A stretch of DNA of 33,496 bases from an uncultured Lachnospiraceae bacterium (GCA_964403405.1 CAYOGO010000001.1:1-33496); one strand, 5' to 3'. Positions 7,750 to 30,354 are shown, counted from the first letter of the stretch. Program-made: numbers and translations. The notes: a model not told the origin generated them from the sequence alone.

Positions 7750-8289
7750 TTACTTCACCTCGATCTGGCACGTTCTCATTACTGTCAAAGCAGCTTCGTG
7801 TGTTTCTGGGGTCACACCCGCACAACAACTTGAATCAACCGCAATATCAAGTTCTGGGTAATGAGCTTTAAGTAGCATCGCGTTAGACACAACGCAGATG
7901 TCAGTACACAAGCCAACAAGTTCGACATACTCGACACAAGAGCCACGAATGATTTCTGGCAATGCTGTGCTGCCGAATGTGCGCTTTGTTAGTGTGCTCA
8001 GAGCAGAACAATGCTCACAAGACTTGTCAATCAATGTTGCCATAATATCCGCATTGATTTTATGTCCGTCGGTATCTTCGATACAGTGAGGAATCGGCAA
8101 AAACTTGCCCTCTCTCGTTTCCATATAGTCCGCACCGTGGGTGTCCATCGTGCAGATTATATCTCCGTCCCAACCAATGATCTTTTCAATCACTTTTGGA
8201 ACAATAGCTTGTGCCTCTTTTGTGCCAAGCGCTCCGTCGATAAAGTCATTTTGCATATCGACGATTATTAACAGTTTCTTATTTGTCAT
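7750..8289 (-). CDS. isochorismatase-family cysteine hydrolase, nicotinamidase (PncA)-like
   Basis: LLIIVDMQNDF (Asp), the DTHG...H metal-site-like stretch and VGLCTDICV (nucleophile Cys) are present. TAAATG junction with the Prs-like gene. Confidence 0.75.
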   Translation of the reverse strand: MTNKKLLIIVDMQNDFIDGALGTKEAQAIVPKVIEKIIGWDGDIICTMDTHGADYMETREGKFLPIPHCIEDTDGHKINADIMATLIDKSCEHCSALSTLTKRTFGSTALPEIIRGSCVEYVELVGLCTDICVVSNAMLLKAHYPELDIAVDSSCCAGVTPETHEAALTVMRTCQIEVK

Positions 8290-8303: not shown

Positions 8304-10538
8304 TTATTCGTCCTTGAACAACTTTCCCTCTTCTGTTTCAAAGAACATCTTTCTCAGCGAACAGATATCTTTAGGGATGATAACCTCTGGGTTTTCAACT
8401 TCAATATTATGAAGTGTTTTAACCCATCCGTAATACTGATTTGCAATCGCAGAAGTAAGCGCAGACGTCTTTCTTCCGTCGATATATCCCTTACGAATCG
8501 CCTCGTGAGAAATAGATCTCATAAACTTCCAGAAATTATAGTAATGGAGTTTGAGCTTCACCATATATCCGTTTGCGTCTTCAATAACAAATCCCTCGAT
8601 GTGTCTGTTCTCGTATTTGTAATCTTCGCTTGTTACAACATAGTACCAATCGAAGAATTCCTGCCAACTCTCAAGAACGTATGCCTTTTCTTTGTGCGTA
8701 AGACCGAAATCGTTCGCAACGGAACACATAGTCTCGTAGTCGTACTTTCGATATTTCATATCGTTATATACAATGTCGAGCAAGAACAGCTTGTCCTCGT
8801 CGTATTCGATGATATGAGGGTCGTTTGTCATATCTACGCACTCAAACACAAACGAAACATCGTGCTCTTTACAATACTCCTTAATTCTGTTAAGGGTTTC
8901 GTCGGTGTACTTTCTACGAAGCATATCCTTGAGCCATACGGCAAAATCTCCATCAGGACAAGATTTTGTAGTCACAAACAACGAGTCGTCGTCTGCTCCG
9001 TAAGACACAATGCCGAGATAACCATTCTCTTTCACATATGCTGCTGCCGGGAATGACAACTTATACTGAAGCATATCGAGCTTCGTCTCGGGGCGTTCGT
9101 TGATGTTAAAGAACTTATCATATGCTCTTGCGGCGACCTTTTGTCTTGGAATATCAATATACAGACCGCGAGCCTTCGTTGTCTGCTCGTCCCAAACCTT
9201 ATCGTAAAACGCCGTCTTGGTGAAATTGAACGAGGAAATGTTCCCGTACTGCTTTTCCTGCACATAACGATTCTGTCTGAGAGCAATAATCATATCTCCG
9301 ACCGTTTGCTCTCCCTTGGTAGCAGGCTCTGGACGCACTTCTCTTTCCTTAAACACATTGTTCTTGATTTCCACGACGGTATGAGTTCCGTCTGGCGTTA
9401 CCTGAACGCATCTAAGATGACCGCCAAACTCAACCTGCCCCTCAAGGTTAAACACTCTGTCATTTACTTTCGTAGGTAATTGCTTAGTATTTCTGTGTCC
9501 GTGGATCTGATAGCAATTATCTGGAGTGTTTTCAACAAAGGCGTTTGCAACAGCCTCAAAGTCGTTGTAATTACCAACACCTCTGATCATCTGCGAGGTT
9601 GCTACGGTTGTCATATTGTTGGGGATATTACTCAGTCCAGCGTGAGTAACAATGTATGTATTACCTGCATAGGTGTAGTAGGCGCATTGACCGAGCTTGC
9701 GATACAACTGCCGAACGAGTTTCTTATTGACCTGTGCATTATTAAGCTCTGTCTTCGTAACAAGCTCAAACTCCTTTGACGAACTGACACCGTCATTCGC
9801 CCATACCCATAGCCATCTCTCGTGATTACCCTCGAGCAACCACACATTAGGCTTTTGGTCAATACCCATCAAGAAGTTAATTACTTGCGCGTTCTCAACT
9901 CCTCTGTCGATATAGTCACCGCAGAAAATATACAGTTCGTCGTCTTTGAATCCGCCGTCCTGATCAAAATACTCTTTTAATGCGGTGTAACAACCGTGAA
10001 TATCGCCGATATGATGTACCTTCTTGTACTGCGATACGTCGAGAGGTTTCATCCAAATTCTGTCGAGCTCGTCGGGTTTAATGACTGTAATTCCCGACGG
10101 AATTTTCTGAGTCTGGAAACGAGCGTACATCTTGTCGATTGCATCGTCAGGCACTTGCTTGACTTCGGGACGCATACGATTGCGCTCCTTGACAACCTCG
10201 ATGGGGATATCAGTAAAGTCAACGCAATAAATGCGATACTTATATGAGTCGCAAAGCTCTTTGTAACGATTCATTTCGGATGTCTTGGAGTTCGTTGCGT
10301 CGATAACTGTGAACTCGCCGTTTTGCATACGAAGCTCCAATAGCTTAAACAGTGTGCTCCACACGACATTGTCGTTCATAGGATTGATGGCTTCTTTTCC
10401 AGACACAGTCATAATCGGGCTCGAACACTGCATTCTGATATCATCCGCCGACAGCGTATAATTCTTCAGTCCATTCTGTTCAATCCACGTTGACTTACCG
10501 CACCCGCAACTTCCTCTAAGTAATAAAAGAACTCTCAT
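8304..10538 (-). CDS. pnkp: trifunctional polynucleotide kinase / 2',3'-phosphatase / RNA ligase-type adenylyltransferase (bacterial Pnkp-like RNA repair enzyme)
   Basis: N-terminal P-loop GSCGCGKST. Central lambda-phosphatase motifs GDIHGC, GDYIDRG and GNHE. C-terminal nucleotidyltransferase motif I, KENG (VKENGYLG). Confidence 0.85.
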   Translation of the reverse strand: MRVLLLLRGSCGCGKSTWIEQNGLKNYTLSADDIRMQCSSPIMTVSGKEAINPMNDNVVWSTLFKLLELRMQNGEFTVIDATNSKTSEMNRYKELCDSYKYRIYCVDFTDIPIEVVKERNRMRPEVKQVPDDAIDKMYARFQTQKIPSGITVIKPDELDRIWMKPLDVSQYKKVHHIGDIHGCYTALKEYFDQDGGFKDDELYIFCGDYIDRGVENAQVINFLMGIDQKPNVWLLEGNHERWLWVWANDGVSSSKEFELVTKTELNNAQVNKKLVRQLYRKLGQCAYYTYAGNTYIVTHAGLSNIPNNMTTVATSQMIRGVGNYNDFEAVANAFVENTPDNCYQIHGHRNTKQLPTKVNDRVFNLEGQVEFGGHLRCVQVTPDGTHTVVEIKNNVFKEREVRPEPATKGEQTVGDMIIALRQNRYVQEKQYGNISSFNFTKTAFYDKVWDEQTTKARGLYIDIPRQKVAARAYDKFFNINERPETKLDMLQYKLSFPAAAYVKENGYLGIVSYGADDDSLFVTTKSCPDGDFAVWLKDMLRRKYTDETLNRIKEYCKEHDVSFVFECVDMTNDPHIIEYDEDKLFLLDIVYNDMKYRKYDYETMCSVANDFGLTHKEKAYVLESWQEFFDWYYVVTSEDYKYENRHIEGFVIEDANGYMVKLKLHYYNFWKFMRSISHEAIRKGYIDGRKTSALTSAIANQYYGWVKTLHNIEVENPEVIIPKDICSLRKMFFETEEGKLFKDE

Positions 10539-10733
10539 TTAACATCTCCTTGCCTCGACATCAGTGTCGTAAAATTTAATAGTTATTGTTTTAGTGCCTT
10601 TTGTGAACCTTCTTGAGCGGATTTCCGTTCTTATCATTGTATTACTTACGGTGTTACCATAAGCACCACGATCTGCTACGCAGAATTCCCCAGTGATAAT
10701 ATGTAATGTGGATTTATCTTCACAAAAAGCCAT

Positions 10734-10818
10734 TGGTGTCGCTAACAAGACTCGAACTTGTATGCATTTCTGCTCTGGTTTTTGAGACCAGTGTGTCTGC
10801 CATTTCCACCATAGCGAC
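10734..10818 (-). tRNA. tRNA-Leu (anticodon CAA), class II, CCA encoded
   Basis: Acceptor GTCGCTA/TAGCGAC; anticodon arm CTGGT-CTCAAAA-ACCAG; 13-nt variable arm; T arm ACAAG-TTCGAGT-CTTGT; discriminator A; 85 nt. Confidence 0.9.
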
Positions 10819-10979
10819 GTATTAAGCCATTCTCCAACTCTCCCAACCTTTCAGTTGCACAGGGCGTACTGTGTAGGGCGGCGCTTACCCTGAAGTTTCT
10901 ATCACCGCAGATTGTTGTATCCTCTGCAAGTACCGGCGCTTTTAGAGAATGGCGCGTTGGCTGATACAAACCAACGCAT
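10819..10979 (-). ncRNA. structured ~160-nt spacer between two tRNAs (unknown RNA)
   Basis: No credible ORF. A 9-bp long-range helix GCCATTCTC/GAGAATGGC encloses ~110 nt with internal hairpins, and a 7-bp hairpin GCGTTGG/CCAACGC sits beside it. Confidence 0.3.
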
Positions 10980-11068
10980 TGGCTGGGATGGCTGGATTTG
11001 AACCAGCGAGCAGCGTTGCTGACTTGTCGGAGTCAAAGTCCGATGCCTTACCGCTTGGCGACATCCCA
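10980..11068 (-). tRNA. tRNA-Gln(UUG)-like with an anomalous 19-nt variable arm
   Basis: U1:A72, G73 and the D arm TCGCCAAGCGGTAAGGCA match the E. coli tRNA-Gln. Anticodon arm TCGGA-CTTTGAC-TCCGA; T arm GCTGG-TTCAAAT-CCAGC. The variable region is CAAGTCAGCAACGCTGCTC (hairpin CAGC-AAC-GCTG). 89 nt. Confidence 0.7.
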
Positions 11069-11169
11069 TCGTTGCGCTTATTCTCTTACCCTTTTATATC
11101 GCGCACACCTGCTTATCCACGGCTATTGCCTGATACGAGTTTCTCAAGGGTACAGGTGGTGGTATTTCT

Positions 11170-12006
11170 TTATAAAAATCTTTCGATATAAACTCTATCC
11201 TGTGTAAACACTGGAATTTCTGCGTCAATCACCCATCGAGTTCTTGGATAGAAGCCATCCTTAATGTCTACATCGGGGTCTTGATATTCTTCTTTTACAC
11301 AACACACTCCGCGCTTAAACTCCGTAGGCATATCGTTAAAATTGATTGACTTCTCAGTCATTAACATCTCTTGGATGTCATTGCAGGACTTTCCGTGTAA
11401 TGCTTTGTGTGAGAAATTACACTGTCCGAGCATCTGAATGGCGTTTCGTGTTGCGTCCTGCTGTCTCCAGATAAAACAATTGACTACTTCTTCGACAGGA
11501 ATGTTAAAACATCGAGAGTCGAACATCGCAATTCCAATTTTTGAGAAGTACGAGTCATACAGTGCGTCGAACTCTTCTACGCTAAGTGGTTGCGAGCCAA
11601 TATCGCTTGTGTAGTAATCGTACCTACGATTGACTTCTTCCGCAAAGAACTTGTTAAACGCCATTGTAGCCATACTTGCAGAAACACTGCAAATTTTCTG
11701 AACATTGTTATCGAACCAAGCGTCTGTAGTAAGCGTATCGTAGTCCGTCAGTAGCAAGGTGATTTCGTCGGACTGAGTATATCCGAGCTTAACACACTGA
11801 ATATTCTCGCACAGATACTTCATAGTGTTGTTCATTGCGAAGTGAAAGATTTCGTCATATGGCTTCGCCAATCCTCTTGTAAAGGTGTGAAACGCCTTAC
11901 CATCAAGTCTTATAATCACGGGCATTCGACGCACGAGGTATGTCTTAGCTCGATTCTCATAATTGTTTTTCATACGGTCTCCGAGAGAGTCTTTCTTATT
12001 GCTCAT
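11170..12006 (-). CDS. tRNA-His guanylyltransferase (Thg1)-like 3'-5' polymerase (TLP)
   Basis: GDRMKNNYE...VIIRLDGKAFHTFTRGLAKPYD...GYTQSDEITLL is the Thg1-family signature. Confidence 0.85.
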   Translation of the reverse strand: MSNKKDSLGDRMKNNYENRAKTYLVRRMPVIIRLDGKAFHTFTRGLAKPYDEIFHFAMNNTMKYLCENIQCVKLGYTQSDEITLLLTDYDTLTTDAWFDNNVQKICSVSASMATMAFNKFFAEEVNRRYDYYTSDIGSQPLSVEEFDALYDSYFSKIGIAMFDSRCFNIPVEEVVNCFIWRQQDATRNAIQMLGQCNFSHKALHGKSCNDIQEMLMTEKSINFNDMPTEFKRGVCCVKEEYQDPDVDIKDGFYPRTRWVIDAEIPVFTQDRVYIERFL

Positions 12007-12033
12007 TATGTATTCAGTCCTTTCGTTTATTTA

Positions 12034-12108
12034 TGGTCGGGGCGACAGGAGTCAAACCTGCTTGACCTTGTTCCCAAAACAAGTGGGTAGTCGTTACCCT
12101 ACACCCCG
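12034..12108 (-). tRNA. tRNA-Pro (anticodon UGG), CCA encoded
   Basis: Acceptor CGGGGTG/CGCCCCG; anticodon arm CTTGT-TTTGGGA-ACAAG; T arm GCAGG-TTTGACT-CCTGT; 75 nt. Confidence 0.85.
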
Positions 12109-12170
12109 TTAATTGTTTTGAGCCGACTATTACGGGGCGCCCAGAGGGTGGACACGTTTGAATTCCACAT

Positions 12171-12253
12171 TGGTGCGGATAACAGGAGTTGAACCTGCAC
12201 GGGTAACCACCAGATCCTAAATCTGGCGTGTCTGCCAATTCCACCATATCCGC
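12171..12253 (-). tRNA. tRNA-Leu (anticodon UAG), class II, CCA encoded
   Basis: Acceptor GCGGATA/TATCCGC; anticodon arm CCAGA-TTTAGGA-TCTGG; long variable arm; T arm GCAGG-TTCAACT-CCTGT; 83 nt. Confidence 0.9.
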
Positions 12254-12974: not shown

Positions 12975-13268
12975 GTTAAGCTTGAGAAATAAACAACTAA
13001 TAAAAACAACCAGCTAAGTTCGGGTCAATCTTAAAGATTTCGATTTATTGAACTTTGGCGAAAGTCCTTATATAGTCTTGCTTTCTTGGACATTCGGTTT
13101 GAGGGCGTTGATAAGTCGAGTCGATTGTGCTGCACACGGGTTTGTTATACAATAGTACCTGCCAGTTACGCGTCCTGCCGGGAATGTTCCCTCTCATCAT
13201 TTTGTTACTTTTGATATCACCAAAAGCGTTACCTTACGATAACAATATCGAATACAATGCTATTGTTT

Positions 13269-18052: not shown

Positions 18053-18430
18053 ACCGATTTCCTTTCTCTGACTATTTACAATCCACGTAGTGTAAAGCTT
18101 GGTCGTAATCCTGAGGATGTCTCGAGAACAAGCTCTGGACAGCGTTAATCATCTGCGAATAGGTGGCTTTCGATTGATGTTTCGTAGAAAAAGTTTAATA
18201 TTTTCTTTGAAAAGATACCAAATTCGTGGAGGATTGGTCTTGACAATCGGACAACTGATTGCGATGACGGCTTCGTGAGCGTTCGTTTCTGGGCAGGCAT
18301 CTCCTTGGATACCGTCCGCCCGCCAGTGGGTTCTTCCGACATTTTGTTACCTTGAATATCATCCAAGGCACCCATCTAATGATGAGCAATAACGATTGTA
18401 AATTAGTTTTTATTTAATCAAACTTGTATT

Positions 18431-18619
18431 TTATTTGCGAGCGTCTGCAATTGACGCAATCATATTGGCGCTGACTATGCCAAAGTTGATTCCAAGCAAC
18501 CAAATATAAAGGTTGTCATTTGTTGCTGTAACGATGTTAAAAATACCAAGGATTGTAAGCAGTATCAGCCAAACGGCATCCAATATTACTCGATTCCATC
18601 TGTTCCAAAACTTTCTCAT
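18431..18619 (-). CDS. small two-TM membrane protein (62 aa)
   Basis: Two hydrophobic segments (ILDAVWLILLTILGIF and LLGINFGIVSANMIASI). The ATG overlaps the DGR RT stop by 4 nt. Confidence 0.55.
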   Translation of the reverse strand: MRKFWNRWNRVILDAVWLILLTILGIFNIVTATNDNLYIWLLGINFGIVSANMIASIADARK

Positions 18620-19659
18620 ATTGCCTCCTGTGCTGTATTATTAAATAGCTGCGATACGAATTCATCCATACTTTCCAATAGTCTGTGACAGTTTCCGTGA
18701 GATGCGTGATTTTTCCAAGGCTCATACTTCTCTGTGAACGATTCCATCGTCATCTTCCCATTGATTACAAGTCTTGCGTACTTTCTCAATCTTTTCTTGA
18801 TTTGTCGTTTGTTTTCGCCAGTTAATCGACGAATGATAACACCGTCTTCGGTAATGTATGTATGAAATCCAAGAAATCTCAACCCTTTGCGTATCGACAC
18901 GATTTCCGTTTTATTGTTCAAAGTCAGGTGTAAAGTATCGAGATATTCTTCAATACGCTTGAGGCAATACTTCAAATATTCTTTGTCTTCGGATATTAGA
19001 TAAAAGTCATCCATATATCTTCCGTAATACTTACACCCGAGCTCTTCGGTAATAAAGATGTCAAGCCCCGCCAGATAAATCAAAGCGAAAACCTGACTGC
19101 ACTGATTACCAAGCGGCAGACCGTTCCCGTCTGTGCTGTCTATAAACAGATCGCACAACCACTGGATCTCCTCGTCCGTGAAATACTGACGAATGATTGC
19201 TTTCATCACATCGTGATCAATGCTATAAAAGAACTTCGTTATATCACACTTGAGAATATATCCATCGCATCCGTGTTCTTGGTAGAACAAACGCATATTC
19301 TCGGAAAGCCGGTCTAACCCAAACAAGGTTCCTTTCCCAATCTGTCCTGCGTAATTGTCTTTAATGAAAACTTCTTTCATTCTCGGCAATAATACGTAGT
19401 CACATAGGCAGTGCTGTAAAACCTTGTCGCGGAAAGAACCTGATTTGATGTTTCGCGGTTTGGGTTCAGTGACAACAAATTCTGCGTAAGGAGATATTTG
19501 GTATGTATGTTCAATCAACTGTCGCCTCATAACGCATATGTTTTCAAGTGCCATAGCGTCAAATTTTATAGCGCCTTTCTTTTTTCCCTTTCCCCTCATA
19601 GACTTCTTGTATGACTTATACAAGTTGCCGAAATCTGTTACAATCTGAAAATCTCCCAT
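18616..19659 (-). CDS. diversity-generating retroelement (DGR) reverse transcriptase
   Basis: RT motifs include the DGR-specific LPLGNQCSQ ([I/L]GxxxSQ) and YMDDF. The gene lies immediately downstream of the TR. Confidence 0.92.
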   Translation of the reverse strand: MGDFQIVTDFGNLYKSYKKSMRGKGKKKGAIKFDAMALENICVMRRQLIEHTYQISPYAEFVVTEPKPRNIKSGSFRDKVLQHCLCDYVLLPRMKEVFIKDNYAGQIGKGTLFGLDRLSENMRLFYQEHGCDGYILKCDITKFFYSIDHDVMKAIIRQYFTDEEIQWLCDLFIDSTDGNGLPLGNQCSQVFALIYLAGLDIFITEELGCKYYGRYMDDFYLISEDKEYLKYCLKRIEEYLDTLHLTLNNKTEIVSIRKGLRFLGFHTYITEDGVIIRRLTGENKRQIKKRLRKYARLVINGKMTMESFTEKYEPWKNHASHGNCHRLLESMDEFVSQLFNNTAQEAI

Positions 19660-20250: not shown

Positions 20251-20853
20251 TTAAATCAAGAGAGAAGATTTCAAGATACAAAACGGGCGAACGCCGCCGC
20301 TGCCAATGTCGCAGGCGTTCCAGTCCAGAACGCCATTCGAGCGGACGCAGCAAACGTCACGAGCGTATCCCTCTACATCTGCACTTACTCTTGTCGCCGT
20401 ATGCCACCAACTTCCGTATGCGGGCAAGAATTTTCTGTACGCTCTGTATCTTTCTGTCGTCAGAATAGACACATAGTCTTCACAAACCTTTACTCCCGTT
20501 CCGTCATCAGCCGTCAGGTCTGTCTGATGCTTCACGATATTTTCCTTACCTACAGCACCTGCGATTTCCTTATAGAAATCGTTATTCAAGTAGGCGCGGA
20601 TATCGCTGTTGAGATAATCGCCCGTCTTTCCGAACGCCATCTTCTTAACGAAATCCTTGGCGATAACCGCCGTAACACCATTCAGATGCTGAAGAACAAT
20701 GTATTCTCTTTTGCCGAGCTTAATAATCGCTCCGGGCTCGTGCTCTCCAAGAGCTTTACATCCCTCGGGAGACAATGTAATAATAACAGTACCGTCATTC
20801 TCGCTCGTTGTTACCCTTACGTTGGGTGCGTTGTTTACAATTTCAACTCTCAT
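20251..20853 (-). CDS. DGR target protein 1 (C-type-lectin-fold variable C-terminus)
   Basis: ATG at 20853 after AGGAGAAAATCA. The C-terminus ...WWHTATRVS...NGVLDWNACDIGSGGVRPFCIL contains VR1. Confidence 0.85.
   Translation of the reverse strand: MRVEIVNNAPNVRVTTSENDGTVIITLSPEGCKALGEHEPGAIIKLGKREYIVLQHLNGVTAVIAKDFVKKMAFGKTGDYLNSDIRAYLNNDFYKEIAGAVGKENIVKHQTDLTADDGTGVKVCEDYVSILTTERYRAYRKFLPAYGSWWHTATRVSADVEGYARDVCCVRSNGVLDWNACDIGSGGVRPFCILKSSLLI
20282..20364 (-). repeat. DGR variable repeat VR1
   Basis: 83-nt match to the TR with 9 A-site substitutions. It ends 31 nt before the stop codon. A GC-rich IMH-like GGCGGCGTTCGCCCG lies at its 3' end. Confidence 0.9.
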
Positions 20854-20881
20854 TGATTTTCTCCTGTTATGTAAAAGATTT

Positions 20882-21418
20882 TTAAGAAACACGGAGTACA
20901 CCTCCGTTCACTTCCGTATATCCATCTTCGCTTAGTAACTCCCCAAGCTTTTCGTAGTCTATACATTCAAGAAGCGTTTCCTTGCTGAACATTCCATCGT
21001 CTGCGAATTGCTCAGCAAGTTCGGTCAAAGTAGTTCTTGGATAGAAATCGACATCTCTGTCCTCGACCTTGTCGATTGCATCTTCCAACGAATATCCTTC
21101 GCTATCTATTAACGCTACCATCGCGTCATATTCATAGTCCTGTAAGTCCTCAATGCGTTCAACCAAGTCGCTCGCACTGTATGGATTCTCACAATCGGAC
21201 TGAGTTAAAATCTCGGAACTAAAGTCCAAAACCTCATATGTGTCTGACGGACTATCTCCAGCCATCAAACTGTCAAAGTCGTACTCTGCGTCTGGATCAA
21301 TTCCCATTTCTTCTAACATCTCGTTGAATTCGTTTTCCGTAAACGGTAAATCAATCCACCTCGGTGCGACCTGACGATTACTGCTTCCTATGAGCAGTTT
21401 GGAATAAGTATTTATCAT
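20882..21418 (-). CDS. ardA: ArdA-like antirestriction (DNA-mimic) protein
   Basis: APRWIDLPFTENEFNEMLEEMGID...EY and the C-terminal CIDYEKLGELLSEDGYTEVNGGVLRV parallel Tn916 ArdA (GAWFTFPIDFEEVKEKIGL...; NYIDYQAYGRDL...HGIFEIV). Highly acidic. ATG at 21418 after GAGAGGTG. Confidence 0.6.
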   Translation of the reverse strand: MINTYSKLLIGSSNRQVAPRWIDLPFTENEFNEMLEEMGIDPDAEYDFDSLMAGDSPSDTYEVLDFSSEILTQSDCENPYSASDLVERIEDLQDYEYDAMVALIDSEGYSLEDAIDKVEDRDVDFYPRTTLTELAEQFADDGMFSKETLLECIDYEKLGELLSEDGYTEVNGGVLRVS

Positions 21419-21420
21419 AT

Positions 21421-21951
21421 TCACCTCTCGTCTTCCGCCCATTCAACTATCAGCTCTTCCAAAAAAGCCACATCTTCTTGTGGAATTGGTCGCGCCAACC
21501 ATTGTGTGCCGTATATAAATCCTCTATCGTCTTCCAGACCGATTTCTTTAAGGTACGCCCTTGCGGCAGAGTAATCATATTTATTTTGTTTCTTCCATTC
21601 TTTCAGAGCCAACTCTTGGACTTGTGTTCCAGCAGTTAAATCGTTAAGATGGTACGCTCTCCATATTCTAACGAGTCTATCGAAAGATGCAAGTTCAAGT
21701 TCTGGTACTCTTTCTCGATACATCTCGACTATTCGCTCTATGCACTGATCGCCGTATCTGCCTTTTCGTGGTGAAGCACATATACTAAGAACTGGTATAT
21801 TGTCTGCCTGCAAAGTGTCATACCGAATCACATTCTTTTCTGTCAAGCTTATTTCAAATTGCAAACATCTTGTGCTCTTTCTGAAGTATTTGCCGAGCTT
21901 CGCAAACTTTCCGCACGGCATTAACCGTAGATATATCGTATGTTCCTTCAT
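21421..21951 (-). CDS. hypothetical protein (176 aa)
   Basis: ATG at 21951 lies 5 nt after GGAGG. Confidence 0.65.
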   Translation of the reverse strand: MKEHTIYLRLMPCGKFAKLGKYFRKSTRCLQFEISLTEKNVIRYDTLQADNIPVLSICASPRKGRYGDQCIERIVEMYRERVPELELASFDRLVRIWRAYHLNDLTAGTQVQELALKEWKKQNKYDYSAARAYLKEIGLEDDRGFIYGTQWLARPIPQEDVAFLEELIVEWAEDER

Positions 21952-22974: not shown

Positions 22975-23314
22975 AAATTCTCCTTTCACTATTTGCTTGT
23001 TATTGATTCCTTACAATCCAACGCGGTTGAAGCTCATCAGAAAGATTTCTTCTGAAGAAGTATTTCAGCTCAATTTTGATGTCTTTGAAAGTATCGAGTT
23101 CGTTTGTTTTCAAGGTTTTCCTTTGAAAACAACAGCAATAACATTGGGATTTTCGGTAGTTTCTGCACTTGCGAGCAGTTTCCTGTGGCAAACGGTTCGC
23201 CAGCAATGTGCTGCGCCAACGTCTTCCTTCGGAAGCCGGCTCTCCATCGTCTCGCTTCTTCGGACATTGTGTCACGTTTGATATCATCAAACGCATCATC
23301 AAACAAAGTTAATG

Positions 23315-23344
23315 ATAATAGCGATTGTAAGCTGTATCCGTCAA
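23315..23344 (-). promoter_or_regulatory. candidate sigma-A-type promoter (TTGACG-18-TATTAT)
   Basis: Minus-strand cTTGACGgatacagcttacaatcgcTATTATc at the head of leader B. Confidence 0.4.
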
Positions 23345-23569: not shown

Positions 23570-24712
23570 TTACGGATTAAGCAAAGCCTTCGCCGTAGCT
23601 AAAACATCTTTATTGAATTTTGTGGAGTACGCATTGAGAATTTTGTCAATCTCCTCGCCCTCTACCATCTTGTAGTAGGCAACGAGACCAAGGAAATGCT
23701 GTACGTCCTCGAGTTCCCAAGCAACGCCTTTCGCATCGTCAGTCATAAACTGGAAGATCATTGCTTTGAAGACCTTTTTCTTTTCGTGACCGATTGTAAT
23801 CTTGTTCTCTTTGTTGAGCATAACTCCCAAATTCCAGTTTCTTCCCGCCGAAGAACCATATCTGGTCTTCTCTGCGTTAAGCGTAAACGGAGCTGAGAAC
23901 TGATTGAAAATGTCGGTTATCTTGTTCTGCACGGCCGTCCAATGGAAACTGAACTGGCTGGAAATCAACATATCGTCAGCGTATCTTGTATAACAAAGAT
24001 GCGGACTGTATTCACGACACATCTTTGCAATCGCGTGATCGATGGGAATCATCATCATATTCGTCAGCATTGGACTGGTGGGCGTTCCCTGCGGCAAACC
24101 GCCATTCAGGAAACAAAGAGATAATGCTTTTTGAAGCACCTCTCTGTATCCGTAATCATAATTTACGAACACACAAAACGGATAAAGCTCGCAGAGCATA
24201 TCCATCAAAAACTTCTCTGTAGTGGACGGAAAGAAACCCTGTGCATCGAGTTTTAAGAACCAACGGGAGTTGTTTGTCTGGTGACGCTTTACGCTGTCAA
24301 TCGTGCTTCTACCGTGAACATACGCAAAAGCGGTAGTATGATAGGATGCGAAAAATTTCTTTTCGAGAATTTCTTTCAGCTCTCTCAAAGCCTTCATCAG
24401 CTCGTCTTGGGGAGCATCTATCTTACGCAAACCGCCACTTCTTTTAGGAATTTTGAAACTTCTATAAAGCACAGACTTATCTTCCGTATTGATAAGACCT
24501 GCGTACTTTTCGTTAAAAGCCACGAGAGCTTCATACATACCACGGAAGTTTGTCTTTTCGATCAAATTGGGGTTAATGTTGTTTGTGAGCCACGTCCTTG
24601 TGTCTCTGGTGTCTTTCGCCGGCATAAAATCCGACTCACTACATCCGTTCAGGATATCGTCAAACGTGAGCTGATACGTTCTCGGTTCGACATTTACGGT
24701 AATATACGGCAT
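23570..24712 (-). CDS. retron-type reverse transcriptase (380 aa)
   Basis: Block-by-block similarity to the Ec86 RT: FKIPKRSGGLRKIDAP, KLDAQGFFPS, GLPQGTPTSPMLTN, YTRYADDMLIS and LGVMLNKENKITIGHEKKKVFKAMI (the VTG-region equivalent). ATG at 24712 after AAAGGAAC. Confidence 0.85.
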   Translation of the reverse strand: MPYITVNVEPRTYQLTFDDILNGCSESDFMPAKDTRDTRTWLTNNINPNLIEKTNFRGMYEALVAFNEKYAGLINTEDKSVLYRSFKIPKRSGGLRKIDAPQDELMKALRELKEILEKKFFASYHTTAFAYVHGRSTIDSVKRHQTNNSRWFLKLDAQGFFPSTTEKFLMDMLCELYPFCVFVNYDYGYREVLQKALSLCFLNGGLPQGTPTSPMLTNMMMIPIDHAIAKMCREYSPHLCYTRYADDMLISSQFSFHWTAVQNKITDIFNQFSAPFTLNAEKTRYGSSAGRNWNLGVMLNKENKITIGHEKKKVFKAMIFQFMTDDAKGVAWELEDVQHFLGLVAYYKMVEGEEIDKILNAYSTKFNKDVLATAKALLNP

Positions 24713-24725
24713 ATTGTTCCTTTCT

Positions 24726-25054
24726 TTCTGTAATCGCGAGGTACAGATGACTGTCTGAAGACTCACCGCGGTCGGCGATGCATCTTCTGCGTCGTCATCG
24801 CAAGGTTAACAGGCGGTAGTCGGGTGGGCAAAGCTGTAAGGAAAACGGGTGTGATTTGGTAATGACGGGTTGGTTTCAAGTAAATTTAATATTAACTTGA
24901 CACTTATCCGCACGAAATGGCTCCGAGCACCTCGTTACTCCTGATGGAGGCGTCACGCCTTCTGTCCCACTGGGGCTGCCATCTCTTGACATTTTGGTAC
25001 TTTCGGTAAAACCCAAAGCCTTGTGTCCGAAGAAACAAGAATAACATTACAGAA
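24726..25054 (-). ncRNA. candidate RT-associated ncRNA (retron msr-msd-like)
   Basis: 329-nt region free of ORFs >=60 aa between rnhA and the RT. It is bounded by the 9-nt inverted repeat TTCTGTAAT (25054-25046) / ATTACAGAA (24734-24726), with a G right after the 5' arm. A UUCG-capped hairpin lies at ~25020-25040, and there are several GC hairpins. Confidence 0.4.
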
Positions 25055-25059
25055 TTGTT

Positions 25060-25500
25060 TTATTTTTGATTGTTGGTGTAAGCCTCTACGGCAAGTTGGT
25101 CACAGCGCTCGTTTTCTGGGTGACCATTATGTCCTTTGATCCAAACAAATTTGACTTTGTGAACCTTGAGTAGCGATAAGAGTTCTTCCCATAAGTCTGA
25201 GTTCTGGGCAGGCTTACGGTTAGACTTTCTCCAACCATTTGCCTTCCAGCTTTCAGCCCAACCTTTCTCAATGCCGTTTACAACGTACTGAGAATCGGTT
25301 GTCAAAACAACCTCGCACGGCTCTCTTAATGCATACAGTGCTTGAATAGCAGCCGTCAACTCCATTCGGTTGTTCGTCGTGTCTGGGTTAAACCCCGATA
25401 ATTCTTTGATCGCGGAGCCGTACCTTAATACGGCTCCCCAACCACCACTTCCGGGATTGCCAGAGCACGCCCCGTCTGTGAATATTTCGACACGCTTCAT
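25060..25500 (-). CDS. rnhA: ribonuclease HI
   Basis: [25 protein letters not shown]...TTNNRMEL...TDSQYV...[16 protein letters not shown] is near-collinear with E. coli RNase HI, with the DEDD residues present. ATG at 25500 after GAGGAA. Confidence 0.95.
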
Positions 25501-25519
25501 ATATGTTTTCCTCAACGAA

Positions 25520-26206
25520 TTACATCGTCATAATATCCATAGCGAACGGATTGCAGACAACGATCTTCTGCAATTCGCCGCCACGAATGAGGTTCATAAA
25601 GTTTGTAACGCCGAGAGCACAAATTACCCTAACTGTAGGGGCGACACCGAGCTCTGTGCCGCAGGCTGTTACAGGAGTAGCCTCGTGTGCTTCGTCGTGA
25701 GAGAAAGCCATCGACTTGATAAGATTGTCCACCTGACGCATATCGCCCCAGTCTGCGGCGTAATGCTGTGCATCTTCAAGACGCGTTCTGAAATCAAACA
25801 CGGCTTTGATTGCCTTGTTCATACGATTCTTCTCGCAGATTTCACGTCTCAAGTCGATATTATCAACGGCAAGGAACACGTAACCGTTGAGCTTCTGATC
25901 TGTGTATCCCTGCCCGAACACCTCTATGGTGCTTTCCGCTTCGGGGTTGATATCACAGATGATTTTCTTAACTGCTTCAACCTTAGGTTTCTTGACGTCG
26001 CTCTGTACGAACATCTGATTTGCAAGGTTGTGCGGCTCGACAATGTCGAAATCATAAAGAACGAATTTCGTCACGCCGAGTCTTGCGAGATTTTCTGCGA
26101 CAGTAGATCCCACGCTGCCACAACCGATGATGTGGCACTTGCCACGTACGTTGACCGGATCAAAGTATTCGATAGACTTTGTTAAATCCATTAGTGCCAC
26201 CCCCAT
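25520..26206 (-). CDS. minimal ThiF/MoeB-type E1-like adenylyltransferase (~223-228 aa)
   Basis: [38 protein letters not shown] is a Rossmann/ATP loop of the E1 superfamily. The start is at 26206 or the TAATG-coupled 26191. Confidence 0.8.
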
Positions 26207-27102
26207 TCTCTCGAGTAGAACGGATCACTCGGGTCTTCGTCAACCCCATAGTAATCATCGTCGTCATCTCTTACGTTTGTGCTTTTTGTGTCGTTTTTTT
26301 TACTGTATCCAGTTCCTGCGGCGGACGGAGTTTTAGCCGTCGGCTTCTGAGAACCACCATACGAGTTTCCGCCGTATGAACTTCCGTTGTACGAACCTCC
26401 ATATCCATTGTAGGAACTGCCGTAACTCTTACCGCCGTAAGACGAAACAGTCTGCACAGCAACTTTCTTTGCCTCCAAAACGAAATTGTCAACGGTATCG
26501 CCGTCGTCGAGCATCACCATCATATCAATTTCCTTGGCAGTCGTCGAATACATAGCGTTGTACGTTAAATCGTAGATTTCTGCGCTCCAATCGTGACTTT
26601 TGTTGATGATGAGGAAGATGTAGAATGTATCGTTATTGGCATCGGGTTTAGGAAGCTGGGTGATAACGTCCTTGCGATAATCGGTATCGGTTACGGACGG
26701 AGATACCGGCATATTGACGTGAGAATGTCCGTGGAAACGGAGCGCGTTAAATTTTTCGTCGTCAAGACCGTTAATCCAGTTGGAATATTTCTCCTGATCG
26801 GATGTAACGGTTGCGGCGGTTACAGTGTGAGGAGGAACAAGAATATCGTAAATCTCAAACTCACACTCGGAGAGACGTCTGACTAAGCCGTGCCACTGAA
26901 CCTCCGTAGAAAATTCAGAGACGAGAGCCGTCATCTTAATCCACGCCATAGGCGTGAAGTAAAGCAACGCACATCTGTCGTCGCTCTTAAAATTCTGTCG
27001 GATGTCAATGCTACCATAGCACTTCGAGTTGAGAATCTGCGCTCTCAAGGCTTCGATAATGCGTGTAGCCTCATCCTGCGGTACATAAATTGGCTTAGCC
27101 AT
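26191..27102 (-). CDS. JAB/MPN (JAMM) metallopeptidase with S/Y/G-rich low-complexity tail
   Basis: JAMM motif H126-S-H128-x7-S136-x2-D139 (nt 26686-26727). C-terminal SSYGGKSYGSSYNGYGGSYNGSSYGGNSYGG is followed by an acidic DDDDDYYGVDED stretch. Confidence 0.8.
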   Translation of the reverse strand: MAKPIYVPQDEATRIIEALRAQILNSKCYGSIDIRQNFKSDDRCALLYFTPMAWIKMTALVSEFSTEVQWHGLVRRLSECEFEIYDILVPPHTVTAATVTSDQEKYSNWINGLDDEKFNALRFHGHSHVNMPVSPSVTDTDYRKDVITQLPKPDANNDTFYIFLIINKSHDWSAEIYDLTYNAMYSTTAKEIDMMVMLDDGDTVDNFVLEAKKVAVQTVSSYGGKSYGSSYNGYGGSYNGSSYGGNSYGGSQKPTAKTPSAAGTGYSKKNDTKSTNVRDDDDDYYGVDEDPSDPFYSREWGWH

Positions 27103-28468
27103 TCTGCTGTTCTCCTTCGTTTAAGATTTTGAGAAATTCATTCACCGATACCATCTTGCCGTCGGTGAGTTTGATGCAACGCACACTTCTGTGGCGGTCG
27201 AGCCAGTTAATCATATTGCCGACAACGGTCGAGTCGCCAAAGTTCAAGTTCTTTGTCGCACCAATAGCCTGTTCAATGGCGAGTTGCCACTCTCCGCTAT
27301 CGGCATACTTGGAATAATACTGGTCGTTTCCTCCCGAACATCTGTAAAAATAAATGTGCGGGTGAGGAAGCAAATCTTCGCGGCTAAGTTCTTTATGCAT
27401 ACTGATGTATCTCATACTACCCAGAGAGAATACTGCGTTTACAACGAACACACCCTTGTGTTCTGCAAAAATTGCATTCATAACTCTCGGAATTTCGTCG
27501 GACGATGCCTCAGTATGAATATAAGATCTCTTTTTCTTGTAGATGGAAATAAACTCATCCTCATCGTAAAACTCAAGAGTCTCCGTGATTCCAAACTTGA
27601 TTGTGTCGCCATCCGTGTAAACGATATCCAGACACTTGTGACTGCTGAAAAAGTCAAACAACTCCGTAGTTGCCTCCTCGGGAGCTTCTTCAAGCGCCTT
27701 GAGCAATCTCTGGTTGTCGGACAATTGTCTGTAAAGCTTTTCCATCTCAAGCTGGTATCGTTGAATCGAGTTGATATTGTTATTGACGGCGCTTCTATAC
27801 GACGACAACTGCGTTTCCCTGATGGATTTCTCAAATCCATCGAGGTACTTGTGCAAGGACATATCTCTGAAGTCGAGCTTCTCTGCTGCACGGTTTATGT
27901 AGTCAACAAGGATGTTTTCTGCTTCAGCTTCACTCACATCCTTGTTGTTTACAGAGATAGCCTTGAAAAATGCCTGCTCTTCAGCAGAGAGTTCAGAGGT
28001 GAAATACCACCGAAACACTCTGGCAAAGGTCGAGATAAATCCTTGTATCCACTTAGCCGTAGCCTGTCTATCAACAGCGACTACAACTCTCTGCTTGTCC
28101 ACATTTACGAACACTCTGGTCTTCGCAAACTGGCTCAAGTATCTGCTGATAGGGTATGGAGGTTTATCAAGAGACTCCCAACCATCGTGTGTCAGCTCGC
28201 TCGGGAAATACCCATTTCTTGTTTCGCAGATGATAACCGCATACCCGTCTGCGTCAAACGCGGCTCTGATGTCTCGCTCATTGCTGATTCTATGCATCAA
28301 GACGGTCGATCCCTTGACAATGCTGTCAAGAGTCCATTCGGTACGCTCGATGATAATGGCTCTTAAAAACGCCACCAACGAGTAGTCGCCATTTACGGAA
28401 TTTGCTCCGCCAAGGATATTATCGGCTTCGCGACCTACCAGCCTCATCCTTTCTTTGGAAATTTGCAA
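27095..28468 (-). CDS. 457-aa protein with candidate C-terminal E2 (UBC)-like domain
   Basis: TTG start 7 nt after AAAGGGGTG. The C-terminal LPHPHIYFYRCSGG...EWQLAIEQAIG resembles the HPN...C flap plus following helix of E2 enzymes. The N-terminal ~290 aa are unrecognised, with a coiled-coil at 200-265. Confidence 0.4.
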   Translation of the reverse strand: MQISKERMRLVGREADNILGGANSVNGDYSLVAFLRAIIIERTEWTLDSIVKGSTVLMHRISNERDIRAAFDADGYAVIICETRNGYFPSELTHDGWESLDKPPYPISRYLSQFAKTRVFVNVDKQRVVVAVDRQATAKWIQGFISTFARVFRWYFTSELSAEEQAFFKAISVNNKDVSEAEAENILVDYINRAAEKLDFRDMSLHKYLDGFEKSIRETQLSSYRSAVNNNINSIQRYQLEMEKLYRQLSDNQRLLKALEEAPEEATTELFDFFSSHKCLDIVYTDGDTIKFGITETLEFYDEDEFISIYKKKRSYIHTEASSDEIPRVMNAIFAEHKGVFVVNAVFSLGSMRYISMHKELSREDLLPHPHIYFYRCSGGNDQYYSKYADSGEWQLAIEQAIGATKNLNFGDSTVVGNMINWLDRHRSVRCIKLTDGKMVSVNEFLKILNEGEQQNG

Positions 28469-28497
28469 GGTATTTCACCCCTTTCTGTCTTACCTAA

Positions 28498-28740
28498 TTA
28501 GAGCGCGAGTGCGCCATCTGCCTTGACAATGGCGTTAAGGTTCGCAGTGGAACCATCGGCAACTCTGAGCTCCTCAAAGGTCTTGCCGAAGTCTGCTGCG
28601 GAGAGGATTGCACCGTCGAGATTGACCATCGAAGTAGAAGTATCAACGCCAAGCTCGGCGAAAACCTCACGGGGAGTGGAGGTTACATCTGCGGAAACGG
28701 TGCGGCGGGTAGTGTTAGTTCTTACATTGATCGAAATCAT
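28498..28740 (-). CDS. ThiS/MoaD-like ubiquitin-like beta-grasp protein (80 aa)
   Basis: ATG at 28740 lies 10 nt after AAGGAG. VNLDGAIL...LRVADGSTANLNAIVKADG-ALAL parallels the ThiS pattern vNg..v...l.dGD.v.i...v.GG. Gly76 is followed by a 4-aa tail. Confidence 0.55.
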   Translation of the reverse strand: MISINVRTNTTRRTVSADVTSTPREVFAELGVDTSTSMVNLDGAILSAADFGKTFEELRVADGSTANLNAIVKADGALAL

Positions 28741-29280: not shown

Positions 29281-29355
29281 TGGTAGTGGGTACGGGAATC
29301 GAACCCGTGTCATTGCCGTGAAAGAGCAATGTCTTAACCACTTGACTAACCCACC
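29281..29355 (-). tRNA. tRNA-Glu (anticodon UUC), CCA encoded
   Basis: Anticodon loop CTTTCAC is identical to E. coli tRNA-Glu. T arm ACGGG-TTCGATT-CCCGT; acceptor GGTGGGT/ACCCACT (G1:U72); 75 nt. Confidence 0.85.
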
Positions 29356-29441: not shown

Positions 29442-30194
29442 TCAACTGTGAGCAGTCAAGACACAAGATTTCAAGATACAAAACGGGCGAACGCCGCCGC
29501 CGTCACAGTCGCAGCCGTTCCAGTCCAGAACGCCAAGCGAGCCGACGTAGCAAACGTTACGAGCGTATCCGCTTTCTTCGATAGCGCTCTTTCGTGTGGC
29601 AGTCCACCACCATCCGTCTGAACGAATGTGTTTGCTGTACTTTCGATAACTGTCAACCGTCATCAGAGAGATATAGTCTTCGACAAATCCGTAATCAGCT
29701 CTGCCGTCCTCTGGCGTTGTGTCAACGCGATGCTTGATGATATTCTCTGCTCCAACAACCGCAGCAAGCTCGTTGTAATATTCTTCGTTTAGATATCGAC
29801 GAACCCTGCTCGTTTCGTAATCTGCTTCGTCTCCGAAAGCCATAAAGTTTACAAAATCATAGTGTAGCAAAAGCACGTTCTCTCCGATGTAATCAAGCAC
29901 GATATACTTCCATCTGCCAAGTCTAACTTGACTGCCAACGGTAGGCAAACCATCTGCCGTACCAGATACGTTATACGAATTCATATCAATGATTTTTTGT
30001 GCAGGAACTTCTGCGGGAATAAAGTTCTGGTAGATACACCCTGTACTCTCTCCGGGCATACCTGCAAACAACGGACACCCTGCACAGCCCGTAGTTCTTC
30101 CCCAACAAAACTCTTGGATGCTATTTATCGCATCCGCTACATTTTGCGGCAACCCGATTGCCTCGGGTGTAATAGTGGTTTCTCTTTCTGACAT
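29442..30194 (-). CDS. DGR target protein 2 (remote target, 250 aa)
   Basis: The C-terminus ...WWWTATRKS...LGVLDWNGCDCDGGGVRPFCIL is paralogous to target 1 and carries VR2. GAAGGGAG SD. Confidence 0.85.
   Translation of the reverse strand: MSERETTITPEAIGLPQNVADAINSIQEFCWGRTTGCAGCPLFAGMPGESTGCIYQNFIPAEVPAQKIIDMNSYNVSGTADGLPTVGSQVRLGRWKYIVLDYIGENVLLLHYDFVNFMAFGDEADYETSRVRRYLNEEYYNELAAVVGAENIIKHRVDTTPEDGRADYGFVEDYISLMTVDSYRKYSKHIRSDGWWWTATRKSAIEESGYARNVCYVGSLGVLDWNGCDCDGGGVRPFCILKSCVLTAHS
29482..29564 (-). repeat. DGR variable repeat VR2
   Basis: 83-nt match to the TR with 10 substitutions, all at TR adenines (minus strand). It shares the same IMH-like 3' end and downstream TTTTGTATCTTGAAATCTT as VR1. 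Confidence 0.9.
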
Positions 30195-30244: not shown

Positions 30245-30354
30245 TGGTGAAAAGGGGTGGATTTGAACCACCGAAGCCAGACAAGCCACTTGTGCACCAA
30301 GCTTATAAGGCGAAGATTTACGGTCTCCCGCTTTGTCCACTTGCATACCTTTTC
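30245..30354 (-). tRNA. aberrant 110-nt tRNA-Tyr(GUA)-like gene (39-nt variable region, C33)
   Basis: Acceptor GAAAAGG/CCTTTTC, discriminator A plus CCA, and T arm GGTGG-TTCAAAT-CCACC are canonical. Anticodon arm GGAGA-CCGTAAA-TCTTC has C at position 33. The variable region is 39 nt with the hairpin ACAAG-TGG-CTTGT. Confidence 0.5.

Follow-up and report, generated by a model that had tools for sequence, protein, structure and literature searches.

The 33,496-nt stretch of DNA analysed here (GCA_964403405.1 CAYOGO010000001.1:1-33496, from an uncultured Lachnospiraceae bacterium; the whole stretch is referred to as the window) carries a discrete, conserved phage module. In this module the genes for a 132-aa protein (p132), a ubiquitin-like protein (Ubl), a 457-aa protein (p457), a JAB protease and an E1-type activating enzyme, sometimes with an RNase H gene, are followed by a retron-like RNA and a reverse transcriptase (RT). 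The combination of Ubl, E1 and JAB with two unfamiliar proteins and a retron-type RT was not found described, and it represents a variant of the bacterial Ubl systems. An original prediction, made from the window sequence alone, had proposed a phage-borne conjugation cassette of four genes, namely a Ubl, a candidate E2 (conjugating enzyme), a JAB protease and a minimal E1. The four minus-strand open reading frames (ORFs) were found where it had placed them (Table 1), with overlaps of 8 nt between p457 and JAB (27095-27102) and of 16 nt between JAB and E1 (26191-26206), and the phage-borne set of Ubl, JAB and minimal E1 was supported by a beta-grasp match, a JAMM motif and a ThiF match. Its genes and motifs therefore stand, but the four-gene block is not the full unit, because p132, RNase HI, the RNA and the RT also travel along. 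For the overall picture developed below, a conserved phage Ubl module with a relay from JAB through E1 to p457 plus a retron part, we see an even chance.

The neighbourhoods of p457 homologues were surveyed, as the original prediction had proposed, and the cassette genes do co-occur elsewhere. In the p457-anchored loci the p132 gene lies directly upstream of the Ubl gene, an arrangement seen in nearly every related locus examined, and the RT lies 3′ of E1 in 17 of 18 informative loci. An RT-anchored scan of IMG/VR yielded at least 561 relatives, the best 80 of which (44-62% identity) were examined. The full order p132–Ubl–p457–JAB–E1–RT was present in 70 of these 80 loci, and nearly all of the exceptions were broken by contig ends. 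The flanking genes fell into 28 clusters per side (71 loci). Given that the flanks vary while the order is kept, the six genes move as a unit. The co-occurrence of cassette and RT persists down to about 22% p457 identity and, among GenBank phages, the only RT of >30% identity sits in the only record that also carries p457. RNase HI is found in a subset of loci, either 5′ or 3′ of the RT; its start is 4 nt past the E1 stop in the window, and it overlaps E1 by 4 nt in locus L013 (related loci are denoted by L and a number).

A 96% identical copy was found on a 70-kb contig binned with a metagenome-assembled genome (MAG) of Eubacteriales, and further relatives occur in Clostridia MAGs, one Bacteroidales MAG and IMG/VR viral contigs of 20-150 kb. 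The module was absent from cultured phages, the sole GenBank phage record with p457 being an uncultured human-gut contig, and megablast of the block against GenBank phages gave no match. Within the window, all genes of the region lie on the minus strand, base composition is even along the whole length, and promoter and terminator scans performed no better than chance.

In one lineage (L015/L016; L015 13130-14512; a 499-kb scaffold and a 7.6-kb contig), tRNA genes stand in place of the RT, and p132, Ubl, p457, JAB and E1 are kept together with the first ~60 nt of the RNA. With this RT-less variant, nature would provide a useful control for whether the cassette depends on the RT.

The 80-aa Ubl had no match in Pfam, NCBIfam, PHROGs or PADLOC, and PDB sequence and profile searches with p132 and Ubl returned nothing useful. 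The fold of the window Ubl was read through a homologue, the Ubl–p132 fusion P0191, which is 32% identical to the window protein over the Ubl domain and was modelled with AlphaFold2 (AF2) from 65 aligned relatives including the window proteins (predicted local distance difference test, pLDDT, 88). In the model the Ubl domain (residues 4-73, pLDDT about 86-92) has the order beta-beta-alpha-beta-beta-alpha-beta. A Foldseek search of the PDB with this domain returned ISG15, FAT10, ubiquitin and SUMO (E 3e-4 to 2e-3, probability 1.0; TM score 0.6-0.69, root-mean-square deviation 2.8 Å over about 80 columns), with ISG15 as the best match. The window Ubl and its homologue align end to end. The beta-grasp call of the original prediction was right, since the P0191 fold matches these four proteins, and the modelled homologue indicates that the Ubl is a ubiquitin-fold protein whose nearest structures are conjugating modifiers.

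The Ubl tail follows the consensus VKADG-A with 0-3 variable residues behind it, and in the window ALAL follows G76. A single Gly in the tail is usual, not universal; the variants KNA, QNA, GDGG and ADAG were found, and divergent members end exactly at KNA or QNA. A conserved tail carrying variable extra residues, together with the ends at KNA or QNA, suggests that the tail is trimmed to a (G/N)-A or G end.

The 228-aa protein matches Pfam ThiF over residues 23-210 (E 3e-23; 82.7 bits, cut-off 28.1), in agreement with its earlier reading as a ThiF-type E1. Its nucleotide loop reads GCGSVG. Among 19 homologues, GCGxVGS and DFD are conserved, as are one Lys, one Cys and the Asp of DNxxxR (D52, K73, D115 and C182 in the window). 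Cys182 is invariant in these homologues and lies within TPVTAC, just N-terminal of the GVAPTV segment, in a predicted crossover loop. CxxC zinc motifs are absent. Where the canonical NLxRQ motif has its Arg, all 19 homologues carry Asn (HNLANQ, residues 59-64), a swap that may signal altered handling of the nucleotide. A family-specific conserved block sits after the DNxxxR motif. The closest defence models are the Cap2-type ‘E1-E2’ models of PADLOC (2e-18), PDB matches include UBA1, UBA6, UBA5, MccB (4e-7), Cap2, ThiF and MoeB, and the best NCBIfam matches are ThiF models, all below cut-off. A likeness to the PRTRC cassettes, which had also been mentioned, failed: PRTRC_ThiF scored 25.6 bits against a cut-off of 144.75, and no ParB-like match was found among the module genes in Pfam or NCBIfam. 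The protein is accordingly predicted to be a ThiF-type adenylating enzyme with an invariant crossover-loop Cys.

For the 303-aa protein the JAMM motif held up, with E67, H126, H128, S136 and D139 invariant in 40 homologues. A profile of the homologues matched only Rpn11 in the PDB (E 0.23), with the motif residues aligned. Scores against family models were weak: the PADLOC JAB models reached 1e-3, Pfam Prok-JAB was found in seven of the 40 relatives (best E 0.019), and the window protein itself had no match in Pfam and hence no JAB or Prok-JAB model above cut-off. We accept it as a putative, divergent JAMM protease with an intact JAMM site. Its C-terminal third (nt 26191-26500) carries a Tyr/Gly/Ser-rich low-complexity tail of variable length and, after it, the conserved acidic end motif DDDPxSPFY, which looks like a short docking motif for some partner.

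The p457 protein had been put forward as an E2 candidate on account of an HPH-x5-C motif thought to recall the active-site flap of the ubiquitin-conjugating (UBC) fold. This assignment was not upheld by Pfam, PADLOC, NCBIfam, PDB profile, hhalign or Foldseek searches, all of which were negative. No family was found with Pfam (52 members), PADLOC (30 C-terminal domains), NCBIfam or PHROGs, and PDB sequence and profile searches returned coiled-coil noise only. When the C-terminal domain profile was compared by hhalign with five eukaryotic E2s, the probability was 0.1% and only PHPHIYFY and YHPNINSNG were aligned, which is not evidence. The AF2 model of p457 is confident (pLDDT 93.5) and shows an N-terminal alpha/beta domain (~1-195), a coiled-coil helix of ~50 residues (212-261) and a C-terminal domain (262-457, nt 27098-27685). 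Foldseek with the full-length model found no E2 or other fold in the PDB, the best hits (E 0.27) being unrelated proteins, and in BFVD it found one uncharacterized phage homologue only. The lack of a UBC-like fold in this protein had been named beforehand as a point that would speak against the proposal, and as far as Foldseek tells the full-length model has none.

Part of the proposed motif is well conserved. H371 (nt 27356-27358) and C377 (nt 27338-27340) are invariant in 52 homologues, but H369 is not conserved and is mostly Asn in relatives. Across 92 representatives at 20-40% identity only four columns are invariant, namely H371, C377, G379 and D412. The C-terminal domain runs as helix, two strands, helical insert, two strands (339-350 and 354-358), H371/C377 loop and helices, and this modelled order is compatible with a UBC core bearing a helical insert. 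A C-domain profile search of 1.84 billion representatives gave a family of 1971 clusters at 50% identity; the best 150 of these relatives all had the same architecture and so offered no bridge to an annotated E2 family. We also considered a PP-loop reading of the p457 segment CSGGND, which was ruled out by its local helix-loop-helix structure and by the finding of no adenine nucleotide hydrolase fold. From the model and the alignments, p457 is best described as a conserved Cys/His protein of unmatched fold; it may act in the way an E2 does but cannot be classified as one. Its 8-nt overlap with JAB implies translational coupling and was counted in favour of the overall picture.

Searches with p132 gave no match in Pfam, NCBIfam, PHROG or PADLOC. 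Fusions of the form Ubl–linker–p132 (206-233 aa), with the p132 part C-terminal, occur in L007, L010/L011 and nine clusters (P0191-P0199). In the P0191 model the linker is disordered and begins directly after the KADNA tail of the Ubl, and the p132 domain (pLDDT 92-97) consists of a beta-hairpin, a helix, five strands and two long helices. The conserved position, the Ubl fusions and the precedent of type I Bub operons place p132 in the module, where it could be an E2-like or UEV-like (ubiquitin E2 variant) partner, an adaptor or a substrate. The suggestion that p132 is the true E2, by analogy with BubAB, was not adopted: its sole invariant Ser lies near the N-terminus, and the loop where a nucleophile would sit is variable, with indels and no conserved nucleophile.

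The best PDB matches of the RT are the retron RTs Ec83 (7e-28), Ec78, Ec86 and Ec67, down to 4e-14, whereas group II intron RTs reach just 8e-8. The PADLOC retron RT types matched at 9e-52, and the best NCBIfam model was that of retron St85, at 189.5 bits and below its cut-off of 235. Relative to characterized retron RTs, the protein has an N-terminal extension of ~75 aa. These matches suggest that the RT belongs to the retron clade.

The RNA upstream of the RT has a retron architecture. Its a1 segment of 9 nt (25054-25046, TTCTGTAAT) is followed by a G at 25045, by two hairpins and a conserved box GTACCAAAATGTCA (down to about 24983) and then by a variable region; 13 nt separate a2 (24734-24726, ATTACAGAA) from the RT start codon. 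Eleven distinct a1/a2 pairs were found, all complementary, and across loci the distance between a2 and the RT start codon is about 8-20 nt. The mean a1/a2 stem length was 7.5 within a locus vs 3.7 between loci, the G at the 3′ end of a1 was conserved in 14 of 15 loci, and 11 of 13 pairs in the two hairpins showed double compensatory changes. A covariance model of the 5′ part (R1) gave 62 matches in 63 sources, on the coding strand only; of the loci searched, roughly two-thirds had a match at a distance of 270-400 nt on the 5′ side of the RT. The case for this RNA comes through covariation; the 293-nt gap, folded as a whole, is no more stable than shuffled sequences (z = -0.1). No matching family was found in Rfam.

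Each genome holds several copies of the 5′ motif of this RNA (the G, two covarying hairpins and the box GTNACAAAATGTCAGAG), on the coding strand only, and the recurring motif had no match in Rfam. In most related loci a second copy lies just 3′ of the RT (L001, L003, L004, L013, L014 and L018), and the RT gene is sandwiched by two RNA-motif units. Extra copies usually open with the conserved a1 TACAATC followed by G. The copies at 13249 and 18393 and most of the second copies have their own closing stem of 8-11 bp, which is completed about 280-315 nt further 3′, as with GCATTGTATTC/GGATACAATGC at +293 and ATTTACAATC/GATTGTAAAT at +309; for the copy at 23322, no a2 or closing stem was found. 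The extra copies could be further templates of the RT, a 5′ leader family or a new class of structured RNA. They leave the covariation evidence intact, and the biology of this RNA is wider than a single retron.

Taken together, these parts can be arranged into a working cycle, any single step of which we consider considerably less probable than the overall picture. The JAB protease would trim the residues beyond the (G/N)-A tail of the Ubl or cut the Ubl–p132 fusion, in parallel with the JAB of type I Bub. The E1 would then adenylate the exposed C-terminus and hold it as a thioester on Cys182, from where the Ubl would pass to Cys377 of p457 with the assistance of His371, p457 being E2-like in role with a fold not recognisably UBC. 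p457 would then hand the Ubl on to its target protein, and p132 would be a cofactor, an adaptor or the first substrate. The RT, the RNA and RNase H may produce a branched RNA–DNA (multicopy single-stranded DNA, msDNA), and, as in other retrons, this msDNA might either sense a trigger and gate the protein module or be the module's own object.

A number of observations weigh against this picture. The canonical Arg of NLxRQ is gone from the E1, so adenylation activity is not guaranteed, and the Ubl tail is not GG, with N-A in divergent and fused forms. No test ties p457 to any E2 and its invariant Cys could serve some other chemistry; the existence of E2-independent Ubl systems (SAMP, TtuB and Urm1) means that a relay through p457 is not required. 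L015/L016 lost the RT and kept the five protein genes, showing that the coupling is not obligatory in cis, and all loci come from related uncultured gut phages, so that the linkage could partly reflect shared ancestry. Finally, the occurrence of the RNA motif elsewhere in the genomes complicates a simple one-retron reading.

The same observations bear on other ways of reading the module. A bolder version of the preferred reading is that this is a new type of retron, in which the Ubl machine is the protein arm, the transfer fold of p457 is unrelated to known E2s and the extra RNA copies are further templates; this is tentative and on balance doubtful, and we are similarly doubtful about its two possible modes, with the msDNA acting as a gate for Ubl conjugation in one, and the RT/msDNA complex or its targets receiving Ubl tags in the other. 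Alternatively, the module may be an E2-independent Ubl system of the SAMP, TtuB or Urm1 type, in which activation and conjugation are both the work of the E1 alone and the JAB both processes the Ubl and reverses its attachment. That only E1, Ubl and JAB are identifiable, that p457 is without a detectable UBC fold and that the single-domain E1 is near UbaA, TtuC, ThiF and MoeB in size all agree with this. However, the His-x5-Cys of p457 is invariant and sits, in the manner of E2-like proteins, behind four strands and ahead of helices; the translation of p457 is tightly coupled to that of JAB and E1; and every characterized bacterial Ubl conjugation operon (Bil, Bub and Cap2) has an E2-like part (PMC11601596). 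We consider conjugation by the E1 alone unlikely, and equally unlikely the role that p457 would then have as a target, regulator or effector, for instance a Cys/His hydrolase switched by the Ubl or the retron. It is more improbable still that the Ubl cassette and the retron are two independent neighbours which adjoin only through the shared gene order of related phages. The L015/L016 cassettes with tRNA genes instead of an RT, an E1–RT spacing that ranges from 159 to 1260 nt with other ORFs sometimes between, the presence of the RNA motif far from the cassette and the origin of all loci in gut phage metagenomes would fit such a neighbourhood. It is harder to reconcile with a co-occurrence that works in both directions, from p457 and from the RT, with a linkage that extends to about 22% p457 identity amid 28 flank clusters per side, with the sole GenBank phage RT of >30% identity lying in the sole p457-bearing record, and with the translational coupling of RNase H to E1 in the window and L013.

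Two further readings concern the chemistry of the E1. If the Ubl were a sulfur carrier, the E1 would thiocarboxylate a ThiS/MoaD-like protein whose C-terminus is exposed by the JAB, as in CysO/Mec+. The ThiS-like sequence pattern of the Ubl (one homologue is named ThiS by JGI, the Joint Genome Institute), the ThiF models among the best, sub-threshold NCBIfam matches of the E1 and the tRNA and RNA-repair genes of the window point in this direction. Against it stand a tail that is not GG, a module in which neither a rhodanese nor a cysteine desulfurase nor a PP-loop enzyme was seen, top Ubl structure matches that are conjugating Ubls and not ThiS or MoaD, and Ubl–p132 fusions that suit a processed modifier better than a carrier. 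We judge sulfur carriage very unlikely, and just as unlikely the accompanying proposal that p457, which matches no TtuA-like or other known fold, spends the sulfur to thiolate a nucleic acid or cofactor. It is hardly credible that the ThiF-like enzyme instead modifies the Ubl C-terminus in an MccB-like way, for example by nucleotidylation, with no protein conjugation at all. The E1 does match MccB at 4e-7 and some Ubl tails have Asn where others have Gly, but the substrate here is a folded 80-aa ubiquitin-like domain and not a short peptide, the tail Asn is not the terminal residue, and a JAB protease and a Cys-bearing partner suit a conjugation cycle.

Comparison with characterized systems places the preferred reading, a phage Ubl module with a JAB–E1–p457 relay and a retron part, close to several of them. 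Like Bil (BilABCD), the module is an operon that encodes a free Ubl, a JAB/JAMM protease and an E1, and a fourth protein, which bears a Cys, stands where the E2 would be; ISG15 is the best PDB match of the Ubl model, and both belong to a context of virus-host conflict. The E1 of Bil is a large protein of IAD-AAD-CYS organization (PMC11601596), whereas that of the module consists of one domain of 228 aa. BilB can be recognised as an E2, unlike the 457-aa p457 with no detectable UBC fold, and the module has p132, a retron RT and the associated RNA in addition and is carried on phages, in contrast to the bacterial defence islands of Bil. In type I Bub operons (6E.1/DUF6527) the Ubl is fused to BubB, an E2 of ~133 aa, and the JAB frees the Ubl by cutting after a conserved Gly (PMC11601596). 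This resembles the Ubl–p132 fusion with its disordered linker and partner of ~130 aa. In Bub, however, that partner is an E2 of UBC fold whose catalytic residue is a Ser, whereas p132 is without an identifiable catalytic residue there, and Bub has a fused JAB–E1 and a DUF6527 protease, whereas in the module JAB and E1 are separate, no DUF6527 match was found and the E1 keeps its crossover Cys.

The cyclic oligonucleotide-based antiphage signalling system (CBASS) offers a likeness in Cap2/Cap3, given the Cap2-type models that match the E1 best in PADLOC (2e-18), the Cap2 structures among its PDB matches and the JAB partner. In type II CBASS, however, the E2 is fused to the E1 and there is no Ubl, because the C-terminus of the CD-NTase (cGAS/DncV-like nucleotidyltransferase) is the substrate; the module has a free Ubl, and no CD-NTase was found. 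SAMP/UbaA/JAMM and TtuB/TtuC likewise combine a small beta-grasp protein with a minimal ThiF-type E1 and a JAMM protease and, like the module, have no recognisable E2, but the Ubls of those systems end in GG and double as sulfur carriers (for tRNA thiolation and molybdenum cofactor enzymes), whereas the module Ubl ends in (G/N)-A plus extra residues and is accompanied by p457, p132 and an RT. As in retrons, the nearest solved relatives of the RT are retron RTs, the RNA lies directly upstream with a covarying a1/a2 and a conserved G, and conserved protein genes occupy the position of the retron effector; unlike in retrons, the RT falls below the NCBIfam retron cut-off and has its N-terminal extension, and the RNA is long (about 300-330 nt), recurs per genome and has no msr match in Rfam. 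The module works like the class formed by Bil, Bub and Cap2/Cap3, yet by the features that define Bil, Bub, CBASS and PRTRC it is a member of none of them. A literature search on retrons with E1, JAB and Ubl genes and on phage-encoded retrons or Ubl systems yielded no paper that connects them or describes the module. An effector set of E1, JAB and Ubl is, to our knowledge, not part of any retron type described so far.

Table 1 Features of the Ubl–retron module and other elements of the window (positions counted from the first nucleotide of the window)
Feature	Position	Strand	Remarks
p132, 132 aa	28827..29225	-	No family; 5′ neighbour of the Ubl gene, conserved position
Ubl, 80 aa	28498..28740	-	Predicted beta-grasp, by homologue model; ends ...AIVKADGALAL
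p457, 457 aa, TTG start	27095..28468	-	Invariant H371 and C377; candidate thioester acceptor
Putative JAB/JAMM metalloprotease, 303 aa	26191..27102	-	Invariant JAMM motif
Predicted minimal E1, 228 aa, single ThiF-type adenylation domain	25520..26206	-	Pfam ThiF
RNase HI	25060..25515	-	Pfam RNase_H 4e-47; NCBIfam ribonuclease HI 2e-66, above cut-off
Retron-like non-coding RNA, 329 nt	24726..25054	-	Covariation of a1/a2 and hairpins
Retron-type RT, 380 aa from ATG at 24712	23570..24712	-	Best PDB matches are retron RTs
Extra RNA motif copies	23258-23322, 18333-18393, 13191-13249, 10628-10703 (weak)	-	Matches to the 5′ motif
Anti-defence/RNA-repair arm	6970-8289, 8304-10538, 11170-12006, 20882-21442		tRNAs at 10734-12253 and 29281-29355

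The surroundings of the module are phage-like, with a Pnkp/RNA-ligase fusion, a Thg1-like enzyme (tRNA-His guanylyltransferase), an integrase and a gene resembling phosphoribosyl pyrophosphate (PRPP) synthetase; an isochorismatase/nicotinamidase-like gene, ArdA and five tRNA genes are also present. The context rich in anti-defence genes that had been proposed was thereby recovered in the form of ArdA, NAD-salvage genes, RNA-repair genes and tRNAs, a set that is a typical anti-defence and RNA-repair repertoire. Since the module sits among anti-defence genes, its role most likely lies in inter-virus or virus-host conflict, either as a defence system on a possibly temperate phage or in counter-defence.

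Several further elements were observed. A second RT (18616-19659, minus strand) is of the PHROG 1423 type (6e-110), and we suspect that it is of the diversity-generating retroelement (DGR) kind; two paralogous DUF6273/phrog_9958 proteins (29442-30194 and 20251-20901) could be its diversification targets. One copy of the RNA motif lies directly 3′ of this second RT. A 107-nt segment at 30248-30354 (minus strand) aligns over its whole length with the Rfam tRNA model; the score of 31.3 bits narrowly exceeds the gathering threshold, and ARAGORN made no call. The segment may represent a tRNA-like element or a tRNA interrupted by an insertion or intron. Just 5′ of p132, a protein of ~512 aa with DUF2828 and DUF7788 is encoded in L014 (7544-9085), L015 (7566-9101) and L016 (1089-2624); it is absent from the window.

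Descriptions of bacterial Ubl conjugation by Bil, Bub and CBASS Cap2/Cap3 have until now presented it as host defence, and the module described here would hand phages a full Ubl toolkit. The family is abundant in gut metagenomes, but cultured phages lack it and it has no annotation in Pfam or PHROG. It supplies a compact predicted E1 of 228 aa, a candidate transfer enzyme of confident yet unmatched fold and a natural fusion of a Ubl with its partner. The linkage to the RT joins two machineries of conflict, reverse-transcribed DNA and protein tagging, in a way not found in the literature searched. If this link is functional, the module would represent a new class of retron effector and may reveal that the status of msDNA is read by a protein-modification cascade.

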